Numbered from the stretch's first letter, positions 199 through 23,498 are shown. The stretch: 23,498 nt of DNA from a virus (IMGVR_UViG_2537561944_000018); one strand, 5' to 3'. Notes: generated from the letters alone by a model not told the origin. Numbers and translations: made by a program.

Positions 199-2136
199 TC
201 ATGCCGCAGTGTCTGTGCTGTTCACTTCCACCGCAATGCTGTCTATCAGTACCGGGTAAGTCGCATTCCTGGTAATGTCTGTCACATGCAGTTTATCCGC
301 CGCAAATGCACTGACCGGTGACTGCGTCAGCGTGAACGGTGTGCCATCCTGACCATCAATAACCGGCGTCACCTGAAGGCTGTTATTCCCGGCAAAGCGG
401 AAAGCCAGCGTATGCCATTCGTTATCAAATGCGCCAAAGGTTCCCAGTTTCAGGTTGTTTGTCGCCACTTTCGCATTGTGGTACATCACATTCAGGTCTT
501 TTGCATCTGTCTGGATGTAGGACGCTGCCAGCAGGTTATTCCCCCCGTCTCCGGTCAGGGCAACGCCCTGTGGCAGTGAAGAGACCGGCCAGTAAAACGC
601 CATAACATACTGGTTCGCAGCCAGCGCTCCCGAAACCTTAAAGCGGCAGCGAATCTGCCCCCCTTTCTGTAACAGAGCCGCACCGTTGCCCGCGGCGTAC
701 TCCAGCACCCAGCTGCTTTTACCGGCTTCCTTGGTCAGCTTCACTGCCTTACCTCCGGTTCCCTCCGCATCGCTGACCACTTCTGCCCTGCCGCCACTGG
801 CTGACCATCCCTGTACTTTCAGGCTTCCCTCTGACTCGCTGGCAAGGTAAGAGAGCAGTGTTGTGACGCCTGTGGCTTCTGCACCGGAAGGCGATGAAGG
901 GCGCACCTCTGATACTGTCGATGATGCCCCCGCGTTTAGCGCCACTCTTCCCGCATGGCGCAAAATCGCCGTTGCCAGACGGTCGGAAATAATCCCACGG
1001 CGTGCCCAGGCGCTGAAATGGCTCGCCCTGTCCTGTGACGTCCAGGTGGCTGAGCTGTCACGCCATTTCGAACCGTAATATCCGATACCCGGAATGTCCG
1101 GGTCTTCTTCCGGTTTGTTCGTCGGCACATTCACCCCGTTCTCATCGGTCATGAACGGTACGAAATGGATATTCTTTTCCGTTTTGTTTTTATAGCTGCC
1201 GTACACCGTCTGGTACGTGGATTCGTTCTTCTGCTTCCAGAAATACGTCGTATCTCCACATATCCAGGGAACACCGCCAGCAGAGCCACCGACGCACTGA
1301 CCTGCCATATCCGCCAGGTCTGCACGGAATTTATCAACCAGCGCACCAAACTGTGCTGCGTGATTTGCCGGCGTACCGCCAAAATCAAATTCCCCCTGCA
1401 TCCACACCACGGCAAACAGCACATTTTTCGGATTCTTCTTCAGTGCTGCTTTTGTTCGACCGATAAGGTCCTTATACAGCGGCTTGTCCACACCCCAGCG
1501 GGTTGAATTCTCCGAGGCACCACTCGCGTCACTGTATGTGCCATCGGCTCCGGTGGTGAACGCTGAACCACCACGACAGCACGGAACCAGCAGAATGCCC
1601 GCATTCGCCGGTATAAACGGCAGCAATTTTTTGGCGATATGCAGCCCTTGCCCCACGGTTCCGTACTGCCCCTTTGACAGGTCCGCTTTCGGATGGTTAA
1701 GGCGGCTCATGTCCTGCACATCATGCAGACAATGGTCCGCCGGAATGATGTCGTTATATTTACAGGCGACACCGCCCGGTGTCACCGTACTGCGACGCGC
1801 CAGCTGCTTAATGCGCGGGTCCGGACGGTCATATGTCTCCGGCAGCGGAAGGCCTTCACCATATGCCATGCTGTTTGACTGCCCCGCCAGAACCACAACA
1901 AAGTAATACTCCGGGTCTCTGGTGGCGCTGATTACTGTGCCTTCTCCATCCGACGGCTTCACCAACACAGGTGTGGTGACATCACCTTCCGCCGCAATGG
2001 CCTGCATCAGAGTATAAGGCGTGATGGCCACCGGGCTGCCAAATGGCTGCCACCCCTCCTTCAGTTTTTGTGTCAGCTTTTCCGCAAGGTCTGACGGCGA
2101 CGCCGCCCTGACAACATCATAATGTTTAATCGACAT
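199..2136 (-). CDS. NanS-p-type prophage sialate O-acetylesterase (SGNH/SASA hydrolase domain), 645 aa
   Basis: 645-aa ORF with a GQSN-type SGNH motif (VVLAGQSNSMAYGEG); ATG at 2136 preceded by GGGAGAA; size and position match prophage NanS-p proteins as recalled. Confidence 0.8.
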   Translation of the reverse strand: MSIKHYDVVRAASPSDLAEKLTQKLKEGWQPFGSPVAITPYTLMQAIAAEGDVTTPVLVKPSDGEGTVISATRDPEYYFVVVLAGQSNSMAYGEGLPLPETYDRPDPRIKQLARRSTVTPGGVACKYNDIIPADHCLHDVQDMSRLNHPKADLSKGQYGTVGQGLHIAKKLLPFIPANAGILLVPCCRGGSAFTTGADGTYSDASGASENSTRWGVDKPLYKDLIGRTKAALKKNPKNVLFAVVWMQGEFDFGGTPANHAAQFGALVDKFRADLADMAGQCVGGSAGGVPWICGDTTYFWKQKNESTYQTVYGSYKNKTEKNIHFVPFMTDENGVNVPTNKPEEDPDIPGIGYYGSKWRDSSATWTSQDRASHFSAWARRGIISDRLATAILRHAGRVALNAGASSTVSEVRPSSPSGAEATGVTTLLSYLASESEGSLKVQGWSASGGRAEVVSDAEGTGGKAVKLTKEAGKSSWVLEYAAGNGAALLQKGGQIRCRFKVSGALAANQYVMAFYWPVSSLPQGVALTGDGGNNLLAASYIQTDAKDLNVMYHNAKVATNNLKLGTFGAFDNEWHTLAFRFAGNNSLQVTPVIDGQDGTPFTLTQSPVSAFAADKLHVTDITRNATYPVLIDSIAVEVNSTDTAA

Positions 2137-2449
2137 CGAATTTCTCCCGTGTACAGGAACAGAGTTAAAAAGCCGGAACCGGAATCAAATTACAGGATGG
2201 CCATCTGCCAGTGGCTGGTCGTAAAAAAAGGCCACGCCATGCGCAGCCGGAAATAAAGGGATAACGATGATAGTTTGAGAAAAACAGAAACAACACTTTT
2301 GTGGCAAAGCATGGTGCCGGGTGCCTCCCGGTGAATTCAGTATCAGCACCTGAATCCGCGATTATCCCATATACCTGGTTGCTGATCGCCCCTCCGCACA
2401 GGGGGATTCACCATGCAGAAGTGTTTTTAATAAACAGCAAACAAAAAAA

Positions 2450-2617
2450 TCAAGCATTATGCAGGCTGTTTCTTTTTATCACCGGCCACAGCAATACCAC
2501 AATGCCGCAGACCAGCACCCCATCCGCCAGCACCGACATGATTCTGCTGGTGAAATCCACCATCACCACCAGAAACAGCAGGAGTGCAGCCACAGCCAGG
2601 CGCAGTTTTACCGTCAC
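2450..2617 (-). CDS. Small hydrophobic two-helix protein (55 aa), coupled to the TerB-like gene
   Basis: GTG at 2617-2615 overlaps the TerB-like TGA (2616-2614) as GTGA; product VTVKLRLAVAALLLFLVVMV...VLVCGIVVLLWPVIKRNSLHNA; GGAG 8 nt upstream. Below the ORF-track size cutoff. Confidence 0.4.
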   Translation of the reverse strand: MTVKLRLAVAALLLFLVVMVDFTSRIMSVLADGVLVCGIVVLLWPVIKRNSLHNA

Positions 2618-3045
2618 AGGTGATTCTCCAGACGAAGACCCAGAACACCGGCAATCTCTTCCAGCACCTTGCGCTCTTCCGGCTCAATTTCGCCGTCTGC
2701 CTCCGCAATGGCCACCGCCACATCCAGCACATCTTCCGCTTCACGCGTATCGTGTTTCACATCCTCAATCTCGCGTAACGCGGCACGACGACCAATTTTA
2801 AAATTGGTATCCAGCTGACCGATAATAGTTGCGCTAATCGCATTAATTTCCGAGGTAAACGCAGACAACGCAGGCTGATTACGTAAGACCTGTTCGATCT
2901 TCGCTTTCTCGGATGCCTCGCATTCACCATCTGCATAGGCCACCAGGTATGCAGCGTTAATCACCGCCTGTGCCAGATCGCGTTTCTCAAACTTTTTAAT
3001 TTCCGCTGCCGCTCTGCGGGTTTTCTTTTTGAAGATTCCAAACAT
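2614..3045 (-). CDS. TerB-domain (tellurite-resistance TerB-like) protein, 143 aa
   Basis: Internal ATG at 3045 with AGGAA 9 nt upstream; C-terminal VAIAEADGEIEPEERKVLEEIAGVLGL resembles TerB as recalled. The track ORF begins earlier at a non-ATG codon. Confidence 0.7.
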   Translation of the reverse strand: MFGIFKKKTRRAAAEIKKFEKRDLAQAVINAAYLVAYADGECEASEKAKIEQVLRNQPALSAFTSEINAISATIIGQLDTNFKIGRRAALREIEDVKHDTREAEDVLDVAVAIAEADGEIEPEERKVLEEIAGVLGLRLENHL

Positions 3046-3177
3046 CGTGACGTTCCTTTGGGTGGGTGAGCCAACGCCCGGGAGCGATCTGCCCACAGAG
3101 AAAGTCACACTGACCACTCCGTAAGCTCACCCCCGAAAGGCTCTGTGGTTGATATGCGCCGGGCGTGGCGCAGATAC

Positions 3178-3201
3178 AAAAAAGGCCCGCCGAAGCGAGC
3201 C
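3178..3201 (-). terminator. Rho-independent terminator after the tRNA cluster
   Basis: Minus-strand RNA GGCUCGC-UUCG-GCGGGCC (7-bp stem, one G-U) followed by U6; 13 nt downstream of the tRNA-Arg(UCU) CCA end. Confidence 0.7.
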
Positions 3202-3214
3202 TGGAAAATAAGTG

Positions 3215-3291
3215 TGGCGCGTTGTAGTGGAGTCGAACCACTGACCGATTGCTTAGAAGGCAATTGCTCTGTCCGACTGAGCTAACAACGC
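3215..3291 (-). tRNA. tRNA-Arg (anticodon UCU), CCA encoded
   Basis: 77-nt cloverleaf: acceptor GCGTTGT/ACAACGC, D-arm GCTC..GAGC, anticodon stem ATTGC/GCAAT with loop CTTCTAA, T-arm AGTGG-TTCGACT-CCACT. Confidence 0.9.
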
Positions 3292-3304
3292 ATGATGCTG
3301 ATAA

Positions 3305-3381
3305 TGGACCGCCATCGGGGACTTGAACCCCGCGCAGCCAGCTTCGAAGGCTGGCGCTCTGTCCCGATGAGCTAATGGCGG
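3305..3381 (-). tRNA. tRNA-Arg (anticodon UCG), CCA encoded
   Basis: 77-nt cloverleaf: anticodon stem CCAGC/GCTGG with loop CTTCGAA, T-loop TTCAAGT; acceptor pairs CCGCCAT with ATGGCGG (C1-G72). Confidence 0.8.
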
Positions 3382-3390
3382 TATGTGATA

Positions 3391-3466
3391 TGGTGGCCCT
3401 TGCTGGATTTGAACCAGCGACCTGGCGATTATGAGTCGCTCGCTCTCACCACTGAGCTAAAGGGCC
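3391..3466 (-). tRNA. tRNA-Ile2-like (anticodon CAU; Met not excluded), CCA encoded
   Basis: 76-nt cloverleaf GGCCCTT...AAGGGCC with anticodon loop CTCATAA; closely resembles E. coli ileX as recalled; first of a three-tRNA cluster as in Stx-type phages. Confidence 0.85.
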
Positions 3467-3494
3467 GAGCCAAAAAATAATAATCAGATGAAAA

Positions 3495-4208
3495 TCAATA
3501 ATCAAGCCCTTGCCTGGATACATATCTGTCTGGCGGGAAGCCATAATAGCGGTGAAATACAGAAATAAAGTAGGACCTGCTTGAATAACCGCATTTTTCT
3601 GCTATAGCCTGTCCATATCCATGCCGGGAACATAACATATTTACAGCAACACGCATCCGCTCTTCCAGCAACAAGCGACTGAACATGCCCCCTTCATTTT
3701 TCAGTTTTGTCTTTAACAAACTCTCACTCATATGCAACTGTAGAGCAATCGCACCAAGCGTCCAGCTTGCTGATATATCTGTCTGAATTATCGCCCTGAC
3801 TTTGGCACTTATGCTGGATAAACATCCACTTAAAAACAATGACATCCGTTCATCTGTTTCAAACAGAGACAGGCAGGCCATCATAAGAAACATATCCGTG
3901 GCCTCTCCGGAAAATCCCTGGCTGGTAATTAAAGCCGCAGCCAACGCAGGATTGTTGGGTTCCAGCAACAGGTAAAGCGGAATGTCAGTCAGACGAGTCC
4001 TCGTCAGCTTATGCTGACTTTCCAGATATTGACTTACGACGGATTCGCTTATATCGACAATTTTAACTTTGCCATAATGCATAAGGAAAAGCTCCCTGAT
4101 GCATTTGGTGGCCAGAACGACTGAGCCTGGCTTAAGTGACAACGTATCCTTTTCAAGAAAAATATTAATTGGGGAGCAAACCATGATAACTGAACAGACA
4201 ACAGCCAT
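3495..4208 (-). CDS. AraC-family transcriptional regulator, AppY/GadX-like, 237 aa
   Basis: C-terminal AraC-type HTH (AIAEKCGYSSRSYFISVFHRYYGFPPDRY); N-terminus MAVVCSV resembles AppY as recalled; ATG at 4208. Confidence 0.8.
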   Translation of the reverse strand: MAVVCSVIMVCSPINIFLEKDTLSLKPGSVVLATKCIRELFLMHYGKVKIVDISESVVSQYLESQHKLTRTRLTDIPLYLLLEPNNPALAAALITSQGFSGEATDMFLMMACLSLFETDERMSLFLSGCLSSISAKVRAIIQTDISASWTLGAIALQLHMSESLLKTKLKNEGGMFSRLLLEERMRVAVNMLCSRHGYGQAIAEKCGYSSRSYFISVFHRYYGFPPDRYVSRQGLDY

Positions 4209-4330
4209 TATAATTTTACTTTCATTAGCAATTGGTTAGCTCAATTATAGCCCCAAAAGGTAAATTATCATCAACACATAAGCAAAGGACTGACAGGTGT
4301 CGCCCCCCCACCAGCCGCCCATTCACCACA

Positions 4331-4781: not shown

Positions 4782-5324
4782 TTATCGAAATGAATCGTGC
4801 ATAGGTACATAAAGCATGTGTTCAGCCACGGCTAACCAACCTGCAATACGTTTCTCACATGTGCTGAAACACCATTCCGGGTGAGTACGATTTAAACATT
4901 CTGCCATTTTTCTCTTACTCATTCCCCGTCCTTCGTACCTTTGCCGGAGAATATTGATTAGCCCGGGATATTCCCCAAGCACCTCACTGATAACGCGATC
5001 AATAATCAACGCCTCTGTGTCTGTACAATGTGACAACCAGCTCTTCTGCTTCCCTCTGGTCATATCCCGAAAAAATGCCTCAAGTTCCGGTTTTTCCAGC
5101 CCGGATTTCTTCATGCTGCGTAAAACCTCATTAACTGCTGTTTTCGTCAGCTTTTTCGAAACCAGTAACCGGTTAAACATATTTCCGGATTTACCCCCAC
5201 CGATATACGACCACCGCCCCCACATCCGTAATTTCCCCTGGATCCAGACTGCTTCCAGCGTGTTCAGGCGTAAATGTTCGCCGCTTTTGCCTGTAATTTC
5301 CGGATATATCATATTTACGCTCAC
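4782..5324 (-). CDS. Q-like late antiterminator candidate, 180 aa
   Basis: GTG start at 5324 overlaps the rusA TGA (GTGA); WGRW motif recalls the QuuD-type WGAW; sits between rusA and a tR'-like terminator. Confidence 0.5.
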   Translation of the reverse strand: MSVNMIYPEITGKSGEHLRLNTLEAVWIQGKLRMWGRWSYIGGGKSGNMFNRLLVSKKLTKTAVNEVLRSMKKSGLEKPELEAFFRDMTRGKQKSWLSHCTDTEALIIDRVISEVLGEYPGLINILRQRYEGRGMSKRKMAECLNRTHPEWCFSTCEKRIAGWLAVAEHMLYVPMHDSFR

Positions 5325-7148: not shown

Positions 7149-7406
7149 ATGCGTACAACCCAACAATTCAGCATTACATTAACTAACGAAATGGCTGACA
7201 TGGTGCGCGCCCGTGTGGCTTCCGGTGCCTATGCTTCAGAAAGCGAGGTCATTCGTGAAGGGCTTCGCGCACTGAATGAGCGCGATAAAGCAATCGAAGC
7301 GTGGTTAACGCATTCAGCCGCCCCCTCTCTTGATTCTATCCGCGAAAATCCAAACAACGGACGCTCCATTTCACAGGTTCGCGCCGCGATTCGATCCGGG
7401 AAGTAA
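7149..7406 (+). CDS. parD: ParD/CopG-type RHH antitoxin, 85 aa
   Basis: ATG at 7149 with GTGAGG 6 nt upstream; ...ASESEVIREGLRALNERDKAIEAWL typical of ParD-like antitoxins. Confidence 0.75.
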   Translation: MRTTQQFSITLTNEMADMVRARVASGAYASESEVIREGLRALNERDKAIEAWLTHSAAPSLDSIRENPNNGRSISQVRAAIRSGK

Positions 7407-7411
7407 TCTGC

Positions 7412-7711
7412 ATGACATATGAAGTCATCATTACTCCTGAGGCCGAACAACAAATAATCAACCTGCACAGGTATATAACGGAGAAAGCAGGGAACGTCAT
7501 TGCTGACAATTATGCCAATGCGCTTCTTGATTATCTTGATGGGTTTTCTACATTCCCGCATCGGGGCAATAAACGCGATGATATTCGCCAGGGGATGCGG
7601 GTAACTCATTTCCGCCACAGAACGATTATTGCTTTTGCCGTTGATAGCAGAAAAGTCTTTATTGTCGGTATCTATCATGGTGGGCAAAGTTATGAAACCG
7701 ATTTCTTATAA
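7412..7711 (+). CDS. parE: ParE/RelE-superfamily toxin, 99 aa
   Basis: Starts 5 nt after the antitoxin stop; RelE/ParE fold signature (...RQGMRVTHFRHRTIIAFAVDSRKVFIVGIYHGGQSYE). Confidence 0.8.
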   Translation: MTYEVIITPEAEQQIINLHRYITEKAGNVIADNYANALLDYLDGFSTFPHRGNKRDDIRQGMRVTHFRHRTIIAFAVDSRKVFIVGIYHGGQSYETDFL

Positions 7712-7794
7712 ACTTTTACCCACATCATTCCGGTGTTAGAATTAACCGTCCGCCCCCTCTCTTACTGGCGGATTCGTAGGCTATATAAATCAAA

Positions 7795-10209: not shown

Positions 10210-10566
10210 TTATTCAGTTCTGGATTTTGTCGCCCTGCGTATCCGCGCTTTCGCGTTACGTTCAATCTGAATTAACTTTTCTATATTTTTCCGCCTTTCC
10301 TGTTCCTCCTGGCGCAATAGCCTTACATCATCTGCCAGTCTGGTTTCTCTTTTCGCCACAGAGAGCATCCAGTCAAACGGCTCCACAACCGCACCGCAGA
10401 TTTTACAGCGGACCTGGCGCTCTTTTTCGTCAACCCGAACAGAGGCGTGATGACAATATGGTCTTTCCGATGGCTCATAAAGAAAATTAACCTGATTACG
10501 AGGGTCATCCTCTTTTACCGGAAATAAAACGATATTGCTTAACTCATCCTCTGGTTTTATTTCCAT
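10210..10566 (-). CDS. Hypothetical protein with Cys/His zinc-binding motif, 118 aa
   Basis: ATG at 10566 preceded by AAGGAGAGGAG; CHHASVRV...CKICG motif; start overlaps the upstream Ea22-like 3' end. Confidence 0.6.
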   Translation of the reverse strand: MEIKPEDELSNIVLFPVKEDDPRNQVNFLYEPSERPYCHHASVRVDEKERQVRCKICGAVVEPFDWMLSVAKRETRLADDVRLLRQEEQERRKNIEKLIQIERNAKARIRRATKSRTE

Positions 10567-11005
10567 GCTCCTCTCCTTTGATGCGAATGCCAGCGACGCG
10601 TAATGCGTGTTCTAGGTCAATCAGGTAAAGCCAACTGCCATTTTCTTTAGGTATCATGACATGTCGCTCATCTGCATTTATCGGGTGTCCATATCGAAGG
10701 TCGTAGCGAGTCGGTAATTGAACTTCCCGCGCATCCAGTTCAGCAATACGCTTGCTCCCATCAGAGATAACGCCTTCGTAATACTCACGCTGCTCGTTGA
10801 GTTGTGATTTTGCTTCTTCCAGTCCATCCAGCAAACCAGCGATAATATCCGCTTCCCGATGACGGATATGACGCTTAAACGCAGCAAGAGCCGCATCACA
10901 ATCCCGTTCAGCATTTGGGCTGTCCGGGGTAGCCTGATACCACGCCAGCGTCGACTGATAGTTTTGTGCTGCCTCACGAAGCGCCTCATAGTTAACCTCT
11001 CTCAT
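10544..11005 (-). CDS. Ead/Ea22-like protein (paralog), 153 aa
   Basis: N-terminal MREVNYEALREAAQ; AGGAGG 7 nt upstream of ATG 11005; ATGA overlap with the DUF4406 stop. Confidence 0.7.
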   Translation of the reverse strand: MREVNYEALREAAQNYQSTLAWYQATPDSPNAERDCDAALAAFKRHIRHREADIIAGLLDGLEEAKSQLNEQREYYEGVISDGSKRIAELDAREVQLPTRYDLRYGHPINADERHVMIPKENGSWLYLIDLEHALRVAGIRIKGEEHGNKTRG

Positions 11006-11687: not shown

Positions 11688-12024
11688 AAGCGCCTCCGGC
11701 AATCACTTTTCCGATACAACACGGCGGGAAGAATCAGTAATCTGTCGAACAATATCCCGGTGCTTGTTCAGCTCCCGCAGCGCGGCGCAGACTCGCTCCC
11801 ACTTCTGAACCTGACCTTTTGCCCGGCGCAGCTCGCGGTTAGCCACATGCAGCGATGGTAAAATCAGACCATCCGGATGTTTTCTGGTGAACGACGGCTG
11901 TGACTGCACTGTGACCGCCACACTTTCCGTTTTTATTTCTTCCTGTGTTTCTGCTTCCCGTGAGGTAGCCTGAGTTTAACGGACACTCCTTCCTGAAATA
12001 GAATGGCATCAGAAGGAGCTAATA

Positions 12025-12327
12025 ATGAGCAGAAAAACCCAACGTTACTCTAAAGAGTTCAAAGCCGAAGCTGTCAGAACGGGTCTCGAAAATCAACTTT
12101 CGATCAGTGAAGGCGCTTCCCGATTATCTCTTCCTGAAGGCACTTTAGGACAATGGGTTACCGCCGCCAGAAAAGGGCTCGGTACTCCTGGTTCCCGCAC
12201 GGTGGCTGAACTGGAATCTGAAATTCTGCAACTGCGTAAGGCGTTAAATGAAGCTCGCCTTGAGCGAGATATATTAAAAAAAGCAACAGCGTATTTTGCA
12301 CAGGAGTCGCTGAAAAATACGCGTTAA
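12025..12327 (+). CDS. IS3-family transposase OrfA (HTH), 100 aa
   Basis: ATG at 12025; MSRKTQRYSKEFKAEAVR... typical IS3-family OrfA with a leucine-zipper-like C-terminus. Confidence 0.8.
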   Translation: MSRKTQRYSKEFKAEAVRTGLENQLSISEGASRLSLPEGTLGQWVTAARKGLGTPGSRTVAELESEILQLRKALNEARLERDILKKATAYFAQESLKNTR

Positions 12328-13181
12328 TCGAACAATGGCGACAACAATTTCCCATTGAAGCGATGTGTCAGGTATTTGGTGTATCCAGGAGCGGTTATTA
12401 CAACTGGGTACAGCATGAACCCTCAGACAGAAAACAAAGTGATGAGCGGCTAAAACTGGAGATTAAGGTGGCACATATCCGCACTCGCGAAACATATGGA
12501 ACCCGGCGGCTCCAGACGGAGCTGGCAGAGAATGGCATCATCGTTGGTCGTGACCGACTGGCACGTCTTCGTAAGGAGCTAAGGCTACGCTGTAAGCAGA
12601 AACGCAAGTTCAGAGCGACTACGAACTCGAACCACAATCTGCCAGTTGCGCCAAATCTGCTGAACCAGACGTTCGCTCCTACAGCACCAAATCAGGTCTG
12701 GGTGGCGGACCTGACGTATGTTGCCACACAGGAGGGATGGTTGTACCTCGCTGGCATCAAAGATGTTTATACGTGCGAAATTGTCGGCTACGCCATGGGA
12801 GAGCGCATGACAAAAGAGCTGACAGGTAAAGCTCTGTTTATGGCGCTCAGGAGCCAGCGCCCACCTGCCGGGCTAATCCACCACTCTGATCGAGGTTCAC
12901 AGTACTGCGCATACGATTACCGGGTCATACAGGAGCAGTTTGGTCTGAAAACATCAATGTCGCGTAAAGGTAACTGTTACGACAACGCTCCGATGGAAAG
13001 CTTCTGGGGAACGCTGAAAAATGAGAGCCTGAGCCACTATCGTTTTAATAACCGGGATGAAGCCATCTCAGTAATACGGGAATACATTGAGATTTTCTAC
13101 AATCGTCAGCGTCGTCACTCTCGTCTGGGGAATATCTCCCCGGCAGCCTTCAGGGAAAAATATCATCAGATGGCTGCTTAA
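12264..13181 (+). CDS. IS3-family transposase OrfB (DDE/rve integrase domain), made as an OrfAB fusion by -1 frameshift
   Basis: The -1 frame is open from 12264; slippery A AAA AAA G at 12276-12283 inside orfA; DDE motifs (...HHSDRGSQY...YDNAPMES...). Confidence 0.75.
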   Translation, partial: ARYIKKSNSVFCTGVAEKYALIEQWRQQFPIEAMCQVFGVSRSGYYNWVQHEPSDRKQSDERLKLEIKVAHIRTRETYGTRRLQTELAENGIIVGRDRLARLRKELRLRCKQKRKFRATTNSNHNLPVAPNLLNQTFAPTAPNQVWVADLTYVATQEGWLYLAGIKDVYTCEIVGYAMGERMTKELTGKALFMALRSQRPPAGLIHHSDRGSQYCAYDYRVIQEQFGLKTSMSRKGNCYDNAPMESFWGTLKNESLSHYRFNNRDEAISVIREYIEIFYNRQRRHSRLGNISPAAFREKYHQMAA

Positions 13182-13728
13182 AAAAAGAACAAATGGTAGT
13201 GTCCGCTATTGCCAGTACACCTCACCGAACTGGTAACGCAACACCTGCTGGCTGAGGAAAGGCTTTACCATCGGTTTCCGCTACGGATGCAGCTTCCGGC
13301 TCTGCCGGTAAATCAGCGCCCGGTATGCAGTAACGAAATTTACCGCCCTGATTCACGCGAATCAGACGCCCTTTGCTGATTACCATGGCCAGCGATGAAT
13401 TCGCCCGGCGGGAGGTAATCCCGAACATCAGTGCCAGCTCATCCGCCGTTTGTGGGCCATGTTGTTCAATCGCCTCAGTCAGCATTTGCGCTGTCACTTT
13501 CGGTACCGGTGACACCGGTTCACTTTCACCAGCCTGAATCAGCCACCACATCGACCCCTTGTTATCCGCTTCACCGCGGCGCTTCAGTTTCCACAGTTCG
13601 TTGACCGCATCTTCACGGCTGATTCCAAGGCGGGCCGCCACTACCTGTGAAGAGGCTCTTTTCAGTGCTTTCAGTGCGTCAAATACGGTTTCCATTAAAA
13701 TTTCCTCCGACAAAATCGTTTCTCAGAT

Positions 13729-16539: not shown

Positions 16540-16898
16540 TTATAATCCAACCAGGCTTTCCAGGGGGATACCAAATTGATTATGAAGACGGCGAATCATT
16601 GGTAACGTAAGGCTTCTGGTACCATTCAACACCTCATAAACCCGATTTTTTTTCCCAATTGCGGGTTCCAAATCTTTCACAGTCAGCCCCTGCTGTTCCA
16701 TGCGAAATCTTATAGCTTCAATTGGGGATGGTGGCTCAATGGGATAATGTTTTTTTCATATTCCTCTATTAGCAAACACATCACCTCAAAAAAATCCCCC
16801 TCAGGCGTGTCAATTTCGGGCTCATTGTCGAACATGGGTTCAACAGCACGCAACGCGGCTTCATAATCTTGCTCTGTACGAATAGGTTTGATGTTCAT
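16540..16898 (-). pseudogene. higA: HigA-like antitoxin, frameshifted at an A7 tract
   Basis: The N-terminal 62-codon ORF (16898-16710) stops shortly after an A7 run (plus T7 16750-16756); the -1 frame continues through an HTH-XRE domain to TAA 16542-16540. One extra A would give a 120-aa protein. Confidence 0.65.
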
Positions 16899-16900
16899 GC

Positions 16901-17203
16901 TTACTCCAGTTCGATGGTATCAGCATCAATAGCATCGTATTCCTTGTGGTTTCCGATGAATTTAACAAATACCCATCCTCGCTGATACGCAATTGCAACA
17001 ATTAAACGGTAATGATTACCTTTTATGTTGAATACCACGCGCCGGTTTTTCAATATACTGGCCGTTCGGTATTGTGCCTTAATGTCTGCTGGGCTTTTCC
17101 AGTCAGCTTTTGCCGCCTCATCCACCCATGCCCTTAGCGGTTGTTCTGCATCAGGATTCTCCGCCCAAAAATCCCTGAGTGTTTTAACTGAGATAATCTT
17201 CAT
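16901..17203 (-). CDS. higB: HigB-family toxin (RelE/ParE superfamily), 100 aa
   Basis: ATG at 17203; ...VVFNIKGNHYRLIVAIAYQRGWVFVKFIGNHKEYD matches the E. coli HigB motif VFNVGGNELRVV...THKEYD as recalled; toxin-first order, stop 2 nt before the higA ATG. Confidence 0.75.
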   Translation of the reverse strand: MKIISVKTLRDFWAENPDAEQPLRAWVDEAAKADWKSPADIKAQYRTASILKNRRVVFNIKGNHYRLIVAIAYQRGWVFVKFIGNHKEYDAIDADTIELE

Positions 17204-17246
17204 AACTGTATAGTAGTCCCATTTTGGGACTGATGCAACAGCCCGC

Positions 17247-18468: not shown

Positions 18469-18526
18469 TTTCTGGTGACGTTTGGCGGTATCAGTTTTAC
18501 TCCGTGGCTGCTCTGCCGCCCTTTTT
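18469..18526 (+). ncRNA. dicF: DicF small regulatory RNA with its U-tail terminator
   Basis: TTTCTGGTGACGTTTGGCGGTATCAGTTTTACTCCGTGGCTGCTCTGCCGCCC followed by T5; matches the DicF sequence as recalled, with one apparent A-to-G difference; lies just upstream of the dicB homologue. Confidence 0.8.
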
Positions 18527-22316: not shown

Positions 22317-23207
22317 TCAGGCTGCCAGATCATTATTTCCGATGGAAGCATAATAAGCTTTTTCTGCTTCTGCCGGAGGAATATGGCCCAGCCTTTCCAG
22401 CAATCGTCGATTGTTATACCAGTCCACCCACGTTAGTGTGGCCAGTTCCACTTCTGTCCGGTTTTTCCAGCTATTACGGTGTATTACCTCCGCTTTGTAA
22501 AGACCATTGATGCTCTCAGCCATCGCGTTGTCATACGAGTCGCCAGTACTCCCTGTTGATGCCAGTAATCCGGCTTCCTTAAGCCGCTGCGTGTAGGCCA
22601 GCGATACATACTGAGAACCTTTATCACTGTGATGGATTGTGCCGGACGGCCGACGGGCCCACAACGCCTGCTCCAGTGCATCCAGCACGAATGTTGTTTC
22701 CATGGATGATGAGACCTGCCATCCCACGATGTATCCGGCGAACACATCAATGATAAACGCCACATAAACGAAGCCCTGCCATGTGCTGACCCAAGTAAAA
22801 TCAGCCACCCACAACTGGTCTGGACGTTCTGCCACGAACTGACGGTTTACGCGGTCGCATGCGGCAACGGCTTTCCGGCTGACGGTAGTGCGGACCTTTT
22901 TACCCCGGAGAACACCGGCAAGCCCCATAACTGCCATGAGACGTGCCACAGTGCATCTGGCCACTCTGATACCTTCCCGTAACAACTGACGCCAGACTTT
23001 ACGCACACCGTATACCTGGTGATTTTCATCGTATACGCGCTGTATCTCTTTCTTCAGCCAGTCATCGTGCTGCGCACGGGCACTGCGTTTATCCGGATGA
23101 TGTCGCTGTTGCTGACAATGGTAATACGTTGACGGGGCAATATGCAGTTCGCTGCATACCGGTCCGACCCCGTACTGCTCACGCAGCTTATCCAGCAGTG
23201 GCATCAT
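22317..23207 (-). CDS. IS629-like transposase OrfB (DDE), about 296 aa from MMPLL
   Basis: DDE/rve motifs (...HHSDKGSQY...YDNAMAES...); the frame stays open upstream to 23297, overlapping orfA for frameshift fusion. Confidence 0.75.
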
Positions 23208-23498
23208 TTTTCCAGAGGCGGTCGAACTCCGCCTTCGCAAAATAAGCGGAAGCCTGGCGAAGGATATCGTTACTGCGGCGCAGTTCACGATTTTCACGTT
23301 CCAGCTCTTTCAGACGCTGACGTTCAGCACTGGTGAGCCCACCATCACCGCCCCCGGTATCCCGCTCATGCTGGCGAACCCAGACACGCAGAGTCTCCGG
23401 CGTACAGCCAATCTTTGGGGCAATGGAACAAATTGCCGCCCACTGTGAGTCATATTCATCCTGACTTTCCAGAACCATACGAATCGCCCGCTGACGGA
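23188..23498 (-). CDS. IS629-like transposase OrfA, 5'-partial (start lies beyond the window)
   Basis: ...[39 protein letters not shown]...[26 protein letters not shown]; HTH and leucine-zipper region of IS3-family OrfA. Confidence 0.75.

Follow-up and report, generated by a model that had tools for sequence, protein, structure and literature searches.

A predicted cargo cassette of tciA and tciB, with a conserved structured leader, at the stx site of an Escherichia coli prophage

Introduction

The genes tciA and tciB were first named in phage P1, where tciA, tciB and tciC have tRNA genes on both sides and follow the ban promoter, which is under C1 control; the pair itself is located between Pban and ban. 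The first gene encodes a TerB-domain protein. Published work presents TerB as a peripheral membrane protein of amphitropic character (PMC7823757), and on its own it is considered insufficient for tellurite resistance (PMC8421299). TerB domains are also present in the defence systems Shango, Bunzi and Dionysus, the last of which pairs its TerB protein with a transmembrane (TM) effector (10.1101/2025.09.30.679545), and Iyer et al. suggested that the Ter genes of phages are directed against superinfecting phages (PMC7824862). Here we describe a TerB gene and the mini-protein gene that overlaps it, on the minus strand of a viral DNA stretch of 23,498 nucleotides (nt) (IMGVR_UViG_2537561944_000018); this whole stretch is called the window, and coordinates refer to it unless another locus is named. 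An earlier note on this DNA, made from the sequence alone, had taken the two genes for a two-gene accessory cassette in the slot that holds stxAB in Stx phages. The pair is indeed conserved as such, and what the note had missed is that the cassette is already known, as the tciA/tciB family.

In Stx2 phages the small RNA (sRNA) STnc100 has been reported 75 nt downstream of stx2 (PMC12370729), and STnc100 is related to the PasD sRNAs located beside esterase genes (10.64898/2026.05.13.724894). In the isrK-orf45-anrP and c4-icd-ant systems, an RNA switch gates the translation of a late-region cargo gene. Since the tciAB pair is already named and annotated, the novelty of finding it here is low, and the value of the analysis lies instead in the exact definition of the cassette at the stx site, in the recognition of a coupled and selected unit across very different phages, and in a structured leader. 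What is new is this conserved, folded leader RNA, found before tciA and also before ant and other late-region cargo genes.

Results

The two genes and their junction

The pair consists of two overlapping open reading frames (ORFs):

2614..3045, minus strand: tciA-like ORF, 143 aa, single-domain TerB protein (ATG at 3045, TGA 2616-2614)
2450..2617, minus strand: tciB-like ORF, 55 aa, DUF3927 protein (GTG 2617-2615, TGA 2452-2450)

TciA is a soluble, acidic protein with a basic N-terminal helix (MFGIFKKK...) and a single TerB domain in which both acidic DG-x5-E motifs are intact. The TerB domain that had been read in the 143-aa product was recovered in a hidden Markov model search against Pfam TerB (PF05099; 60.2 bits against a cut-off of 24.4, E-value 2.9e-16, residues 26-138), and the whole protein aligns with PHROG 632 ('tellurite resistance'; positions 1-143 of 143, 1.7e-69). 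Structural comparisons agree with this assignment: a profile of TciA homologues matches the solved structure of Klebsiella pneumoniae TerB (2jxu) at 3.3e-15, and the AlphaFold2 model, obtained with 28 homologues (pLDDT 88.6), is all-helical with eight helices and has its best Foldseek fold matches in the TerB-like proteins 2h5n and 2ou3. Each half of the domain carries one D-G-x5-E motif (D39-G40...E46 and D117-G118...E124), invariant or nearly so in the 28 homologues, and the basic-hydrophobic N-terminus, MFG(I/F)FKKK, is also conserved among homologues. Weak, sub-threshold similarity was observed to DjlA (1e-6) and DUF533 (3.4e-5). The matching region has 46 annotated features, and no other ter gene (terC, terD, terE and terZ were sought) is one of them.

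TciB is a predicted membrane hairpin of two TM segments, with a conserved aspartate in the second helix. Its Kyte-Doolittle hydropathy profile displays two hydrophobic stretches, with maxima near residues 14 and 36-40 and a short turn between them (GRAVY 1.43, pI 10, charged C-terminus), and it matches Pfam DUF3927 (PF13064; 62.3 bits against a cut-off of 25, 4e-17), in line with the hydrophobic two-helix protein of 55 aa that the earlier note described. It also matches PHROG 1470 ('TciB-like') over positions 1-54 of 54 (4e-30). The conserved residues are K4, D21, F22, D32 (inside the second helix), P45 and K48. No NCBIfam model exists for TciB, and a set of 1.84 billion proteins contains 111 representative clusters of this small family; a scan of viral contigs with TciB returned only near-identical E. 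coli prophages.

The tciA stop codon and the tciB GTG overlap as GTGA at 2614-2617, exactly where the overlap had been placed, with a GGAG 8 nt 5' of the GTG. A close junction is kept in all 22 loci that have both genes, tciB starting from -8 to +3 nt relative to the tciA stop through GTGA/TTGA, TAATG/TGATG or abutting arrangements. In species-level genomes, scanned with a narrow TciB alignment, a TerB ORF lies directly 5' of tciB in 16 of the 18 loci encoding a TciB relative. Measured against the window copies, the ratio of nonsynonymous to synonymous substitutions (dN/dS) is 0.004-0.37 for tciA and 0.10-0.48 for tciB, the synonymous distance often being saturated, and both genes, the 55-codon one included, are under purifying selection. 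The pair is more than a chance neighbourhood, because it is conserved across species, its dN/dS is well below 1 and its junction is kept. As far as can be judged from sequence, the translation of tciA and tciB is coupled, and phages of very different kinds inherit the two genes together.

In two loci (L002 and L109) the pair is a mosaic, with a tciA 97-99% identical to the window copy and an adjoining tciB only 69-74% identical, which suggests recombination between or within the two genes. Apparent natural TerB-DUF3927 fusions (P0124, P0186, P0248, P0290 and P0297), which would have spoken for an interaction of the two proteins, were rejected as frameshifted or chimeric products and are not true fusions.

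Distribution of the pair

Both genes are annotated in RefSeq (WP_000466957.1 and WP_000216636.1), and they are labelled tciA and tciB in the record of phage JLK-2012. The 1,341-bp stretch at the locus, which comprises both genes and the tRNAs, has 100% identity to the bovine strain E. coli E2865 from Japan (NZ_AP018808.1) and is covered to at least 80% in 664 of 5,426 complete E. coli genomes. Homologues of TciA were found in 131 phage records, which include lambdoid phages, P1/P7/D6-like phages and phage-plasmids, and N4-like virulent phages (Pollock, FSL SP-058/076), and homologues of TciB in 34. The two genes are annotated adjacently in Pollock and FSL SP-058, both strictly lytic and N4-like, and in the Erwinia jumbo phage ChrisDB. 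Relative to P1, the identity of the window proteins is 42-51% for TciA and 58% for TciB. In other Enterobacterales the surroundings of tciAB contain Q antiterminators, of three Pfam families, and holin or lysozyme genes; the pair therefore belongs to phage late operons and not to unrelated chromosomal loci.

TciB is also encoded in phage 434 (locus 2500-2658) and in a series of E. coli matches (H39-H48), in the same slot, 85 nt past the gene of a 247-aa protein and followed by a 62-aa ORF. The possibility that the 247-aa protein of phage 434 is a hidden TerB was ruled out, as it has no Pfam match and gave an hhalign probability of 0.1.

Clusters of tRNA genes often adjoin or enclose tciAB in unrelated phages, as in P1 (Asn, Thr / tciABC / Ile2), in JLK-2012 (Asn, Thr, Gly / tciAB) and in ChrisDB (Trp, Cys / tciAB / Tyr, Gln, Ile, Met and others). 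When the 4 kb fetched on each side of 27 tciAB loci are considered, tRNAs are present in about 10, and their identity and side vary, which does not support a tight functional link between tciAB and tRNAs. We treat them as co-residents of a cargo hot spot.

The cassette at the stx site

The slot is delimited by the following features:

3215..3466, minus strand: tRNA block Ile2/Met(CAT), Arg(TCG), Arg(TCT), of the ileZ-argN-argO type (ARAGORN; Rfam tRNA)
3177..3202, minus strand: intrinsic terminator, with an 8-bp GC-rich stem (3202-3183), a tetraloop and a T-run to ~3177 (terminator scan, fold)
2273..2445, minus strand: STnc100-family (PasD-related) prophage sRNA (Rfam RF02076, 104.7 bits, gathering score 47)
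199..2136, minus strand: nanS-p type esterase (DUF1737 + SASA + DUF6645; Pfam)

In Stx2a_1447 the order is ileZ-argN-argO, stx2A, stx2B and a gene for a 645-aa esterase. Compared by blastn, homology with the window covers 3470-3167, that is, the tRNAs (94.4% identity over the block) and the terminator, ends at 3167, returns at 2434 inside STnc100 and then covers the esterase gene, which is 96.7% identical to the 645-aa gene after stx2B. From these two breakpoints it follows that the cassette extends from about 3166 to 2435 and is a precise replacement of stx2AB, and the equivalence with the stxAB slot, which the earlier note had put forward, is supported by synteny. The leader described below, tciA and tciB would together form a phage 'moron' cassette in the late operon, at the position where Stx phages carry stxAB. 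Such exact breakpoints show the mode of cargo exchange at the stx site.

The terminator had been located by the earlier note at 3178-3201, which is essentially right, and it does stand upstream of the pair as the note said. What the note overlooked is that the terminator is no part of the cassette: it lies inside the segment common to the Stx2a phage and, to judge from this comparison, closes the tRNA block common to Stx phages. At the other end STnc100, which the note did not mention, begins only 5 nt past the tciB stop. Its 5' part is common to the Stx2a phage, downstream of stx2B, and, since STnc100 follows stx2B in Stx2 phages as well, it marks the right-hand border of the cargo slot.

A conserved structured leader in front of tciA

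The cassette carries a second feature absent from the earlier note, a leader upstream of the tciA start codon with the following elements:

3046..3172, minus strand: conserved structured 5' leader of tciA, ~125 nt (alignment, covariation)
3171-3167 with 3160-3156, minus strand: hairpin H0
3148-3141 / 3100-3093, minus strand: helix a / a'
3131-3125 / 3071-3065, minus strand: helix b / b'
3120-3115 / 3086-3081, minus strand: helix d / d'
3115-3103, minus strand: small hairpin
3059-3053, minus strand: Shine-Dalgarno sequence of tciA

In the 5'-to-3' direction the order is H0, a, b, d, the small hairpin, a', d' and b', followed after 3-5 nt by the A-rich Shine-Dalgarno region and the start codon. 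Helix a-a' crosses both b-b' and d-d', so the leader forms either a pseudoknot or two mutually exclusive folds. A search of 3046-3172 against Rfam gave nothing at the gathering score, and only noise at E up to 10.

Conservation of the leader 5' of tciA reaches far beyond E. coli: it was found in Klebsiella phage 5 and, at species level, in 12 prophages from other genera, and in part in Erwinia jumbo phages. In a 25-sequence alignment, which was fitted to H0 and a-a' and not to b-b' or d-d', 92.9% of the cells are paired, compared with 38-50% in slid controls, 15 of the 26 leader pairs vary on both sides, and none of 500 shuffles matched the observed values. When 100 viral contigs selected by pattern were searched with a covariance model built from 14 copies, 62 of them contained the motif.

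Diverged second copies of the leader occur about 4.5 kb downstream in the same prophages. The one of E2865 (63.9 bits; locus L001 10845-11000, just outside the window) is located directly 5' of ant, between lysozyme and Rz, and further copies precede either an antirepressor-like gene beginning MKEMIS or an uncharacterised gene of 246-268 aa. In the diverged copies the helix sequences differ and complementarity is kept, as seen for a/a' (CACAGAG/CUCUGUG, CGUAGAG/CUCUACG, CACAGAA/UUCUGUG), b/b' (GGUGAGC/GCUCACC, GAUGAGC/GUUCAUC) and d/d' (GGAGUG/CGCUCC, GGAUAA/UUAUUC, GGCAAA/UUUGCC). A local hairpin sequestering b', suggested by RNAalifold, was discarded, as it is lost in the diverged copies whereas b-b' is kept. 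The leader is not a coding sequence, given the 1-nt indels between aligned copies, and a sigma-70 promoter inside it was likewise dismissed, since the scan found none and the alignment has no conserved -10 element.

The region upstream of stx2A (locus L110 4757-4850, compared with window 3140-3215) has in common with the tciA leader the terminator, the left end TATCTGCGCC and the CCAAAAGGAAC-type ribosome-binding region, and is devoid of the structured leader core of ~110 nt. The presence of shared leader ends around a core that is absent before stx2A suggests that the ends act as recombination joints and that cargo is exchanged there.

A degenerate leader motif (34 bits) was observed in Gifsy-1 at 33233-33383 (minus strand), between the IsrJ sRNA and a tRNA-Arg, with no ORF behind it. 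We considered whether the leader could be a homologue of the IsrK-orf45-anrP switch and rejected this, because Gifsy-1 orf45 corresponds to Rfam C4/c4-a1b1 and the leader model matches elsewhere, at this 34-bit site downstream of IsrJ.

Gene order and surroundings

On the minus strand the order is the Q antiterminator gene, a small ORF, an AraC/YdeO-like regulator, the three tRNAs, the terminator, tciA, tciB, the sRNA and the nanS-p type esterase. Besides those listed above, the features are:

4782..5324, minus strand: Q-type late antiterminator gene (Pfam DUF1133 1e-110, Phage_antitermQ 1.4e-8; in RefSeq, DUF1133 family protein)
3495-4208, minus strand: AraC-family regulator, situated between Q and the tRNA block; most similar to YdeO and GadX, with scores under the equivalog cut-offs
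2230..2248, minus strand: terminator-like hairpin and T-run between STnc100 and nanS-p (terminator scan)

A promoter-like site is present at 3477-3505, just 5' of the tRNA block. The AraC-family regulator has a promoter-like site of its own at 4244-4271 and is a candidate for control by the prophage of acid-resistance or virulence genes of the host. By annotation, the class II holin and the lysozyme of the prophage are separate genes, ~3 kb beyond tciAB.

The whole window is 99.9% identical to the E2865 prophage, apart from one extra 1.26-kb IS3-family insertion (11961-13224), absent from E2865, which contains an HTH_Tnp_1 ORF and an rve integrase-core ORF and by its position splits a DUF1627 gene. 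An ALIL frameshift pseudoknot (23133-23248, minus strand) is found in a second IS3-family element, which splits the integrase gene. The DicF antisense RNA (75 bits; 18470-18521, plus strand) adjoins dicB and ydfC in the early-left region of the prophage, and in P1 a dicF-like region belongs to the same operon as tciABC. The annotation of the matching prophage includes two type II toxin-antitoxin pairs (ParE/ParD and HigB/HigA-like) at approximately 7150-7715 (plus strand) and 16540-17205 (minus strand), together with an RseB-domain protein at approximately 10545-11005 (minus strand), all coordinates being approximate as they were converted from the E2865 record.

Discussion

The tciAB pair is widespread: roughly one complete E. 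coli genome in eight has it, and its phage carriers include temperate, virulent and jumbo types. Of the cargo sites of lambdoid phages it occupies the one with the greatest medical relevance, and it is a cheap and well-defined experimental target. No promoter-like site was detected between 3202 and 3045 in a sigma-70-like scan, so that transcription should come from upstream. We propose that most transcription of tciAB would be read-through from upstream, as part of the late transcript that Q modifies once the prophage is induced, Q-type antitermination being the presumed route of transcription into the slot, and that the structured leader just 5' of the ribosome-binding site would then shape expression of the two genes. 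Our guess is that the leader serves as a translation gate or as an insulator on read-through transcripts. Should it prove functional, phage accessory genes would have in it a general element for their control or insulation, and it could bear on the post-induction expression of the genes of this region, including those beside stx.

At the protein level, TciB would anchor or partner TciA at the inner membrane, following the logic of TerB with TerC or of the TM-fused DjlA/YebE, and the complex would keep the envelope of the infected cell intact, or shut to competitors, during lytic growth. Superinfection exclusion or resistance to membrane-damaging agents are possible effects, and no tellurite resistance would be conferred on the lysogen. 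We favour an inner-membrane complex on the grounds that TerB is described as amphitropic and is tethered to the membrane elsewhere, that the basic-hydrophobic N-terminus of TciA is conserved, that TciA is strictly coupled to a hydrophobic mini-protein with two TM segments, that TerB is present in anti-phage systems, and that a role of phage Ter genes against superinfecting phages has been proposed. The strict coupling also fits a putative anchor-plus-sensor complex. A role in lytic growth is favoured over lysogenic conversion, because the pair occurs in strictly lytic phages and in the repressor-controlled P1 operon. In our judgement the general picture, in which TciA and TciB form a complex at the inner membrane and thereby protect the infected cell's envelope or close it, has an even chance of being correct, and exclusion as its specific role is rather doubtful. 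The membrane-stress or defence function of which the earlier note spoke is a putative one.

Several observations weigh against this picture. TciB is found without TciA in phage 434 and in many E. coli prophages, where it stands behind a 247-aa polytopic membrane protein, and in one locus it stands behind a DNA methylase; TciB may therefore act independently of TciA. The P1 tci names were annotated 'by homology' only, tciA, tciB and tciC of P1 are each non-essential by CRISPRi screen, and the literature searched holds no functional experiment on any tciA or tciB. A PADLOC scan gave no convincing defence model for TciA (best PDC-S48, E = 0.0035) and no match for TciB. The interaction between TciA and TciB is putative, and the timing of their expression is deduced from position only.

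Other explanations were considered for the pair. Among its carriers are virulent phages, which have nothing to gain from lysogenic conversion, TerB domains are components of validated defence systems, and TciA is a bare TerB domain with no effector, all of which would suit a role in counter-defence, with the phage TerB as a decoy or dominant-negative subunit that titrates the signal or the membrane partner of host TerB-based immunity. The candidate targets would be the terZABCDEF island, common in Shiga toxin-producing E. coli, or Shango-, Bunzi- or Dionysus-like systems. However, so strict an association with a membrane partner of its own points to a module that works autonomously, our search found no anti-defence literature on TerB, any interaction with host Ter proteins would be hypothetical, and we regard counter-defence as unlikely. 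The original 'Tci' idea, by which expression in the lysogen provides resistance to tellurite, pore-forming colicins or other phages, as with the plasmid ter operon, draws on the homology to TerB of ter operons with Te, PacB and Phi phenotypes (P1 annotation note), and the prophage site does adjoin other conversion genes (the stx slot and nanS-p). Such lysogenic conversion is nevertheless quite unlikely in view of the lack of other ter genes in the region, the insufficiency of TerB alone for tellurite resistance (PMC8421299), a terminator and no recognisable promoter in front of the gene, and the presence of the pair in lytic phages, which counts against a role restricted to the lysogen.

A function in lysis timing, with TciB as a holin- or antiholin-like membrane protein modulated by TciA, might be imagined from its small size, two TM segments and charged C-terminus, and from the lambdoid late operon, which places it a few genes 5' of holin and lysozyme. 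Yet TciB matches no holin family in Pfam, the prophage has a class II holin of its own, and in P1, N4-like and jumbo phages the pair is away from the lysis genes, and this reading is very improbable. Least credible of all is that the small ORF is not a real gene, or that the pair is decaying baggage. It is true that the TciB frame is short and opens with a GTG codon, that no NCBIfam model covers it and that some database entries are frameshift fusions, but its dN/dS of 0.1-0.48, measured where synonymous distances are saturated, the conservation of its residues, length and junction in 22 loci from several phage types, and the existence of Pfam and PHROG families all speak for a functional gene.

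Returning to the inner-membrane complex, a wider proposal would join it to the leader. The leader, with its interleaved helices forming a pseudoknot or a two-state switch, would represent an undescribed cis-acting RNA family that enterobacterial phages set immediately 5' of the ribosome-binding site of mobile late cargo genes (tciA, ant, KilA-N-type and others). It would gate or insulate their translation on read-through transcripts, its conserved ends would be the points where one cargo, stxAB for instance, is exchanged for another, and TciAB would be a phage-borne TerB membrane sentinel for exclusion or counter-defence. We offer this tentatively, as a possibility with the balance tilted somewhat against it.

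Comparison with known systems

A close relative of the locus is tciABC of P1, in which a TerB gene of ~141-143 aa is likewise followed, through an overlapping stop and start, by a DUF3927 gene of ~54 aa with two TM segments; tRNA genes adjoin the pair there too, and its position implies expression on derepression. P1 differs in having a third gene, tciC (35 aa), whereas here the STnc100 sRNA takes that place, and no ORF of at least 30 aa starts beside the tciB stop on the same strand of the window. The P1 leader is unrelated, the leader RNA model having no match in the P1 locus, and the proteins share only 42-58% identity with the window pair. With TerB of terZABCDEF (2jxu, Klebsiella pneumoniae), TciA has in common the domain, the all-helical fold and the two DG-x5-E motifs, but it lacks terC, terD, terE and terZ as neighbours and has a conserved basic N-terminus of its own and a dedicated mini-membrane partner. 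The N-terminal domain of DjlA and DUF533/YebE offer another parallel, weak and sub-threshold in sequence, in that the inner membrane is likewise the place to which a TerB-like domain is tethered; there, however, domain and TM segment belong to one polypeptide, whereas here the presumed anchor would be a separate, translationally coupled protein.

Among defence systems, Dionysus (TerB-like DinB, the pore-forming DinC with four TM segments, and DinA), Shango (SngA) and Bunzi (BnzA) also place a TerB protein beside a membrane protein in a context of phage conflict. The tciAB locus, by contrast, has no PADLOC match to any of them and no third gene, its neighbours are tRNAs, an sRNA and an esterase in place of the partner genes of these systems (helicase/ATPase, or MAEBL plus pore-forming protein), and the pair is carried by phages and not in defence islands; compared with Dionysus in particular, TciB is a hairpin of 55 aa and not a toxin with four TM segments.

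In position, the counterpart is the stx2AB cassette, which occupies the same interval, from ileZ-argN-argO and the terminator to STnc100 and nanS-p, with common sequence up to TATCTGCGCC on the left and an CCAAAAGGAAC-type ribosome-binding region. The proteins of the two cassettes are unrelated, and the stx2 upstream region is without the ~110-nt leader core. In architecture, isrK-orf45-anrP of Gifsy-1 and c4-icd-ant of P1 resemble the locus in the succession of an sRNA or terminator, a structured untranslated stretch and a cargo gene downstream of Q, and in Stx-type phages ant is itself preceded by a diverged copy of the tciA leader.

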